Origin: a virus
Virus record (IMG/VR): IMGVR_UViG_3300042868_010462
Coordinates: 32,001 to 96,000 of that record
Strand: one strand, 5' to 3'
Length of the DNA: 64,000 bases
This document shows positions 61,354 to 61,529 of the stretch, in pieces. Every line of letters begins with the position of its first letter. The first letter of the stretch is position 1. Made by a program: the position numbers and the translations under genes. The notes beneath the pieces were generated by a model, which saw only the letters and a list, made by a program, of their open reading frames with translations, had not been told where the DNA came from and did no database searches.

Positions 61354-61529
61354 ATGTCAATGAACAAAAAAAACCCTGAACTTTATGGTTCAGGGTTCTA
61401 CTATCAAAAAATTATTAACAATTATAATTCTATAGAATTTCCCCAACCATTACAAACACTCGGCTTTGACCAACAATTGCTAAATTGTGGCTGAACCGAT
61501 ATGTTAATATGTTTGAAGAAATTTTTCAT
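61354..61529 (-). promoter_or_regulatory. putative attenuator 1: 35-aa leader ORF (61422-61529), terminator (61366-61397), boxA-like site (61354-61365)
   Basis: MKNFFKHINISVQPQFSNCWSKPSVCNGWGNSIEL*; leader 3' end complementary to the terminator 5' arm. Confidence 0.6.

Follow-up and report, generated by a model that had tools for sequence, protein, structure and literature searches.

For decades it has been debated why phages carry tRNA genes and what they use them for. Recent studies have established that tRNAs encoded by phages can rescue infection from defences that cleave tRNAs (PMC11464382, PMC10264068). In the phage described here, a block of tRNA genes is preceded by a short open reading frame (ORF) and a strong intrinsic terminator, an arrangement that raises the question of whether translation of the ORF decides whether the tRNA genes behind it are transcribed. 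The locus lies on the minus strand of a 64,000-nt stretch (hereafter, the window, meaning the whole stretch of DNA that was analysed), which covers positions 32,001 to 96,000 of the virus record IMGVR_UViG_3300042868_010462 (147,874 nt, 30.6% G+C). An earlier interpretation of the window, made from its letters alone and referred to below as the sequence-only reading, had suggested attenuation of the trp/his type. On the basis of related sequences, RNA folding and amino-acid composition, we consider it rather probable that the element is a ribosome-mediated leader-peptide transcription attenuator that stands before phage tRNA genes and senses the state of a tRNA set.

Organization of the locus

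In gene order towards the tRNA genes, the first feature of the locus is a DUF2828/DUF7788 gene (63311..61914), followed by a 385-nt spacer that holds three repeats. Next comes the leader ORF, here called leader B (61529..61422, minus), with 35 codons plus TAA and with an ATG that is the first start after an in-frame TAA. It is followed by the terminator (minus), whose stem spans 61399..61370 and whose eight U extend to 61366. The 35-codon ORF and the strong intrinsic terminator named in the sequence-only reading were thus both found, at 61529..61422 and 61399..61366, respectively. Behind them stand the 12-mer GTTCATTGACAT (61365..61354, minus), at the head of the pre-tRNA, and tRNA-Gln(UUG) (61337..61264, minus), which was detected by both ARAGORN and Rfam and is the first gene past the leader B terminator. 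The leader B element is single-copy in the genome of this phage. The three repeats of the spacer (61574-61906, minus), located behind the DUF2828 (Ro60/TROVE-like) gene, each contain a conserved UUCAGCAA stretch and are kept in relatives; an TTATAAAG-like box precedes each of them and resembles the box before the leader.

All of the 19 tRNA genes called by ARAGORN in the record fall into two blocks on the minus strand. Block B, behind leader B, has the order Gln, Phe, His, a degenerate Ser, Pro, a CAU tRNA, Ile, Lys, Cys and Trp, and block A has the order Asp, Glu, Met, Met, Tyr, Thr, Arg(UCU), Leu and Leu, together with degenerate tRNA-like genes. Ala and Gly tRNAs were not recovered from block A of the window, where the uncalled tRNA-like genes are degenerate; an Ala tRNA was found in one relative (L135), and Gly was without confirmation. 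Degenerate or unusual tRNA-like genes were observed on the minus strand at 60462-60555, 51648-51754 and 52424-52504. Among the degenerate genes, one is Ser(UGA)-like with a poor acceptor stem, and two are paralogues with a common acceptor stem, one of which carries a 29-nt insert beside the anticodon loop.

The phage also encodes ribosomal protein bS21 (26040-26198, plus; Pfam PF01165, 45.8 bits). Shine-Dalgarno sequences were present in only 6 of its 152 genes, the remaining 146 having none and showing A-rich starts. Near-identical promoters of the Bacteroidota type (TTTGGRAATTAAAAA..TAACTTTG) were located on the minus strand at 47631-47662, 56034-56064 and 60805-60834, and the type TTTG-N18-TAACTTTG was accordingly counted three times in the window, compared with 0.25 expected copies. 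Given these three TTTG-type promoters and the scarcity of Shine-Dalgarno sequences, the host probably belongs to Bacteroidota.

Relatives and conservation of the leader

A search of IMG/VR with the DUF2828 protein yielded five close relatives, and a metagenome pattern scan returned 38 stretches and added 4 real contigs. A scan of IMG/VR for the same tRNA-Gln gave 17 stretches, every one of which (17/17) carried a leader ORF and a terminator upstream. Combined, the relatives provided eight clearly different versions of the leader B element, and the ORF, the terminator, the 12-mer and tRNA-Gln were kept in all eight of these diverged versions. The pattern GTTCNTTGANATCGTGG occurred in 119 stretches of IMG/VR, with tRNA-Gln behind it in the known relatives only. 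Two extra matches of the leader pattern (L136 and L137) were rejected as chance hits, and distant DUF2828 relatives (L006-L015) were uninformative because their gene has no adjoining tRNA array. When the leader region was compared with 50,697 phage records by blastn, nothing matched. The L001-type phages carry a 725-nt insertion (5740-6466 of L001) immediately upstream of the leader; it has its own promoter-like site and a signal-peptide protein gene, with no terminator between this gene and the leader.

The leader B ORF was open in all eight versions, with lengths of 28-35 codons. The first 21 codons aligned without gaps except for a three-codon rearrangement; past codon 21, the versions differed in sequence, in length and even in frame. 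Within the 21-codon core, pS ranged from 0.2 to 0.85 and pN from 0 to 0.33, and pN/pS was below 1 in 26 of 28 version pairs and about 1 in the other two. The window and L001 cores differed by four synonymous changes and one non-synonymous change. The residues His7, Ser11, Pro14, Gln15, Cys19 and Trp20 were invariant. The sequence-only reading had asked whether leader and terminator are conserved in related phages, and they are, in eight diverged versions whose core shows a synonymous excess; judging from these substitutions, purifying selection acts on the first 21 codons. The start of leader B is A-rich and without a Shine-Dalgarno sequence, like those of other genes of this phage, and we infer that the ORF is translated in vivo.

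The conserved A/T-rich stretch upstream of the ORF (61530..61573, minus) may be the promoter and start region. No promoter of leader B was identified, and only a conserved TATAAA-like box, ACT(T)ATA(A/T)A, was seen before the ATG, 16-19 nt away and at a spacing held in all versions.

Terminator and antiterminator

The terminator (61366..61399, minus), which comprises regions 3 and 4 and the U-run, has 12 pairs, 5 of which are G-C, followed by eight U, and is stronger than every other terminator-like site on the minus strand in 49000-64000. Its dG was -16.5 kcal/mol in the window and -13 to -16.5 kcal/mol across versions, and 97.7% of the cells of its helix paired across relatives. The putative antiterminator strand, region 2 (61432..61450, minus), starts with the hexamer AUGGUU (61450..61445), which was invariant in 11 sequences while its flanks diverged. 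Six versions read the hexamer as xAU GGU U, L003 reads it as AUG GUU and L164 as A UGG UU. Since it is invariant though read in three frames, the constraint acts on the RNA and not on the peptide.

When the 3' arm of the terminator was omitted, ViennaRNA paired AUGGUU-GGG..UUCUAU with GUAGAA..CCC..AACCAU in the window, which is exactly the complementarity between leader and terminator arm that had been claimed before. The antiterminator domain had a dG of -18.1 kcal/mol in the window (vs -16.5 for the terminator) and -12 to -18 kcal/mol across versions. Both structures use the 5' arm of the terminator and therefore exclude each other, in agreement with the earlier proposal, and this arrangement was kept in eight versions. 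A further pairing proposed for an internal GGUUCAG is available in the window (codons 11-13) but was not conserved in relatives.

In the alignment of the antiterminator helix (A3), 92% of 88 cells paired, compared with 8-67% when the partner was slid. At position 7, the helix shifts from C-G to U-G to U-A together with the terminator arm, and the same change is compensated in L164 by the terminator's 3' arm. Neither the antiterminator (observed value reached by 165 of 500 shuffles) nor the terminator (97 of 500) showed significant covariation, as the sequences have diverged too little. Shuffling of the tails gave p values of 0.004-0.16 for duplex strength in the individual versions. When the upstream complements to the 5' arm were ranked for 11 terminators of the phage, the two strongest belonged to the two leader terminators (-14.7 and -13.8 kcal/mol), and those of the other terminators ranged from -0.6 to -10.3 kcal/mol.

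Region 1 (codons 6-8, AAACAUA; 61508..61514, minus) is an alternative partner of region 2. The pairing of AA[A/C/U]CAUA with AUGGUU was possible in 86% of cells in 10 sequences, compared with 27-46% when slid, and no covariation was seen in these 10 sequences. In addition, RNAalifold predicted a consensus hairpin within the ORF (codons 13-20; 61469..61491, minus), two pairs of which are kept through changes on both sides; we infer that it may be a pause hairpin for RNA polymerase. The complete RNA always adopted the terminator fold at equilibrium, so that the choice made by the proposed switch must be kinetic.

The 208-nt region folded much better than its shuffles (z = -5.35). This result would also suit a non-coding structured RNA with its end at the terminator and an incidental reading frame, for example a partner of the DUF2828 protein; the conserved internal hairpin with its compensatory changes and the annotation of the neighbouring gene as an RNA-binding protein in Vibrio phages point in the same direction. 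However, the frame is open in eight versions despite indels, synonymous changes are in excess, the amino-acid composition (described below) respects codon boundaries, and the 725-nt gene of the L001-type phages lies between the element and the DUF2828 gene. An Rfam scan (cmscan, E <= 1, 49000-64000) matched only tRNA families apart from chance hits, with no T-box, Y RNA/YrlA or known leader. We therefore rate a non-coding RNA of this kind as very improbable. As a specific candidate, a Y RNA/YrlA partner of a Ro60-like protein was rejected, given that no Rfam match was obtained and a coding signature is present.

Ribosome position

In every version, the stop codon of the ORF lies 0-20 nt past AUGGUU, and frameshifting indels never close the ORF ahead of this hexamer. 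In the geometry model, a 30-nt footprint was masked around each A-site codon, and the transcript was folded up to the terminator loop. The antiterminator probability remained near 1 up to codon 21 in most versions and up to codon 23 in the window and L001, and fell to 0 from codon 22-24 onward in the eight versions, with a dip at codons 16-19 in L003 and the L182 type. With no ribosome modelled, the antiterminator was favoured in most versions. In the window and L001, the stop codon is 20 nt after AUGGUU, so masking by a ribosome at the stop codon is incomplete.

These observations bear on an alternative in which leader B is an ordinary small gene with an ordinary terminator, and tRNA-Gln is transcribed through leakage or from an unrecognised promoter without any switch. 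Such an account leaves the invariance of AUGGUU in three frames unexplained. It is also at odds with an ORF that always runs just beyond this hexamer despite frameshifts, with the leader terminators having the strongest upstream complements of the 11, and with a core composition that matches the tRNA block. Moreover, the U-run ends 28 nt before tRNA-Gln, and this interval (61366..61338) contained no sigma-70-like or TTTG/TAnnTTTG site, these being the promoter types scanned. What the account does accommodate is the conservation of the first 21 residues as a peptide, and strong intrinsic terminators behind genes are frequent in this phage. Weighing both sides, we consider it quite unlikely.

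Amino-acid composition of the leader core

The core of leader B (codons 2-21; 61467..61526, minus) contains only amino acids of the tRNA block behind it. As the reference set, we used the full block B found in the relative L024 (Gln, Phe, His, Asn, Arg(ACG), Ser, Pro, Ile, Ile, Lys, Val, Cys and Trp), whose 12 amino acids account for 54.9% of the phage proteome (background 0.549). The core residues were in-set at 20/20 positions in six versions, 19/20 in the L182 type and 18/20 in L003. Against the background of 0.549, a 20/20 core has p = 6e-6, and it was reached by none of 38,250 proteome windows and by 1 of 451 small six-frame ORFs. The tails were at background (55/103 in-set). In five of the eight versions, the first out-of-set residue is codon 22, where stalling first stops helping; the composition turns to background at or shortly after the codon at which a stalled ribosome would begin to cover the antiterminator. 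The sole His, Pro, Cys and Trp codons of the core are invariant, and Val is retained but mobile, being found at position 12, 9 or 22 depending on the version.

When the window's own smaller array was used as the reference, 16/20 residues were in-set (p = 6e-4). The phage of the window has no Asn and Val tRNAs, yet keeps those codons in its leader. Similarly, the leader is unchanged in L184 (502-8519), where block B, as called by ARAGORN, consists of Gln, Pro, a CAU tRNA, Cys and Trp only. The leader thus does not track recent changes of the array, and array content and leader are not tightly co-evolving. The G/C-ending codons that the sequence-only reading had pointed out as uncommon are indeed rare, with relative synonymous usage of 0.1 (CCG), 0.1 (AGC), 0.2 (CAG), 0.3 (TCG) and 0.4 (AAG). 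Their rarity, however, is only partly conserved, since several of them change synonymously in relatives, and it weighs less than the amino-acid roster, a feature absent from the sequence-only reading.

A second type of attenuator was also weighed, namely a translation-coupled one that senses general translation or nascent-peptide arrest, as in TnaC and erm-like leaders, with the composition match being secondary. In its favour, certain residues of the leader are invariant, as happens in arrest peptides, and the leader does not mirror which tRNA genes were recently gained or lost. Furthermore, since the antiterminator forms without a ribosome in most versions, any translation block would open the switch. 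The 20/20 in-set core with tails at background argues against a secondary role of composition, and the invariant residues are mostly those that occur once in the window core (His, Pro, Cys and Trp), while repeated amino acids vary freely inside the set and Val is kept but moves. In addition, leader A, a different sequence, matches the other block. Overall, we regard sensing of general translation or peptide arrest as unlikely.

Proposed mechanism

In the tRNA-set-sensing attenuator that we favour, RNA polymerase would synthesize a short leader mRNA, and a ribosome would translate its 35 codons. If translation proceeded smoothly to the end of the ORF, AUGGUU would be covered while the terminator was being made, the hairpin would form, and transcription would stop before tRNA-Gln. 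If the ribosome stalled in codons 2 to ~22, or if no ribosome was loaded, region 2 would remain free and would pair with the emerging 5' arm of the terminator, and transcription would read through into tRNA-Gln and towards the rest of the block. Because codons 2-21 encode only amino acids of the block, a stall would signal that precisely these codons are being decoded slowly. The phage would accordingly make its tRNA set when this set is in short supply and stop making it when decoding is fast. The model further presumes a promoter, a kinetic coupling of transcription and translation, and a biological trigger such as host codon mismatch or host tRNA loss.

The components of the trp/his-type logic invoked by the sequence-only reading, that is, the ORF, the terminator, the antiterminator, the geometry and the match between codons and gene products, were all found at the sequence level, and every prediction of an attenuator that can be tested at this level is supported.

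Predicted extent of read-through

The earlier description of tRNA-Gln and then the array behind the terminator holds for the first part, with tRNA-Gln as the next gene; before tRNA-Phe, however, the window contains a hairpin, an insertion of ~390 nt and an internal promoter. This promoter, of the Bacteroidota type TTTG-N18-TAACTTTG (60834..60805, minus), lies between tRNA-Gln and tRNA-Phe and is likewise present in L001 and L003. In relatives, tRNA-Gln is followed by a hairpin without a U-run, and then by the Bacteroidota-type promoter, a 64-nt element and tRNA-Phe. As the remaining block B has its own promoter, the directly gated unit would be tRNA-Gln alone; read-through from leader B would serve this gene directly and could only add to the expression of the remaining block.

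The ~390-nt insertion behind tRNA-Gln of the window (60870-61260) is absent from relatives. It holds a bidirectional hairpin of 20 bp (61169-61215) and, on the plus strand, a hydrophobic ORF of 40 codons (61035-61157). The 64-nt element (60736-60799, minus), located between the internal promoter and tRNA-Phe, has complementary ends (GAGUAAG...CUUACUC) and is highly conserved in L001, L002, L003 and L164, in the last of which it precedes tRNA-His. It had no match in Rfam, and its folding was no better than that of shuffles (z = 0). In L003 and L164, a 42-nt insert is found between the terminator and tRNA-Gln.

Exact copies of the 12-mer GTTCATTGACAT, which the sequence-only reading had labelled boxA, occur twice in the 64 kb, at 61365..61354 and 55530..55519 (minus), each 16-22 nt before the first tRNA of its block and kept in relatives. 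The 12-mer resembles the E. coli boxA, TGCTCTTTAACAA, at 9/13 positions, and the boxA of the host may be different.

A second leader ahead of block A

A 23-codon ORF, leader A (56208..56137, minus), precedes the other tRNA block. Its terminator (56072..56109, minus; stem 56109..56080) has 11 pairs and a U-run, and the cassette (56072-56262, minus) has a near-consensus promoter, TTGACA-17-TATATT. At the end of the ORF, GGAGAUGG pairs with the 5' arm of the terminator (dG -13.1 to -13.8 kcal/mol), and an internal hairpin also occurs within leader A. The eight confirmed block-A amino acids contribute 15 of the 22 residues, with all eight represented (p = 0.011); when Gly was also counted, 17/22 residues were in-set (p = 0.005). 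In the geometry model, the antiterminator was lost once the A site reached codon 17, the position of the first out-of-set residue past the run. Leader A is almost identical in L177 and L180, and its terminator is separated from the block A tRNAs by a promoter and a 159-codon gene. Leader A, unrelated in sequence, shows the same design as leader B.

The two leaders together may constitute a two-channel surveillance of the tRNA pool, in which each would be a roster of its own array with its own switch; we offer this extension tentatively, as something slightly short of an even prospect. The amino acids would be split between the leaders, and any host tRNA of one set being lost or in short supply would lead to transcription of the matching replacement set. 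Possible triggers would be codon mismatch, host shut-off or an anticodon-nuclease defence. Such a two-channel design may be widespread in large phages.

Significance and comparison with known systems

In a full-text literature search, no account of tRNA genes controlled by leader-peptide attenuation was found, either in phages or elsewhere. If the proposed mechanism is true, a built-in sensor links decoding stress directly and testably to the phage tRNA supply, and leader-peptide attenuation is extended from amino-acid metabolism to the translation apparatus. It would also represent a compact natural part, ~170 nt long, for reporting whether a chosen set of tRNAs is available.

Among the closest known systems are the enterobacterial attenuators (trpL, hisL, leuL, pheL, the multivalent thrL and ilv leaders, and pheST), in which the position of the ribosome decides between 1:2, 2:3 and 3:4 pairings. 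In these attenuators, a stall at sense codons leads to read-through, and the terminator is more stable than the antiterminator, with the choice being kinetic. Leader B resembles them in its short leader, presumably translated, its four RNA regions and its predicted kinetic choice between terminator and antiterminator. It differs in that the genes regulated would be tRNA genes instead of biosynthetic or synthetase genes, and in that the leader samples 11-12 amino acids, mostly one to three times each, whereas enterobacterial leaders contain a run of one. Region 2 is placed inside the ORF, upstream of the stop codon, unlike in the enterobacterial leaders. Without translation, most versions of leader B favour read-through, whereas trp favours termination. 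The setting also differs, being a phage of a probable Bacteroidota host and not an enterobacterial amino-acid operon.

T-box riboswitches are likewise terminator/antiterminator switches that respond to tRNA status. Unlike leader B, they recognise uncharged tRNA by direct binding, lack a leader ORF and have synthetase or amino-acid genes as their targets; a T-box identity was rejected, as no T-box model matched in 49000-64000 (cmscan, E <= 1). The boxA/Nus sites of rRNA operons and lambda nut share with GTTCATTGACAT a position at the head of long untranslated transcription units, of which there are two here. Unlike such sites, one copy of GTTCATTGACAT stands directly behind a terminator, and its boxA role is putative.

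TnaC, ErmCL/ErmBL and SecM also have a short conserved leader peptide at which stalling alters downstream expression. Those arrest leaders, however, require a specific peptide in the tunnel and often a ligand, whereas the tail of leader B varies and its conserved feature is an amino-acid set. Overall, the class of mechanism proposed here is known, and what is new is that its targets are tRNA genes, that the leader takes the form of a roster and that two arrays are each paired with a leader.
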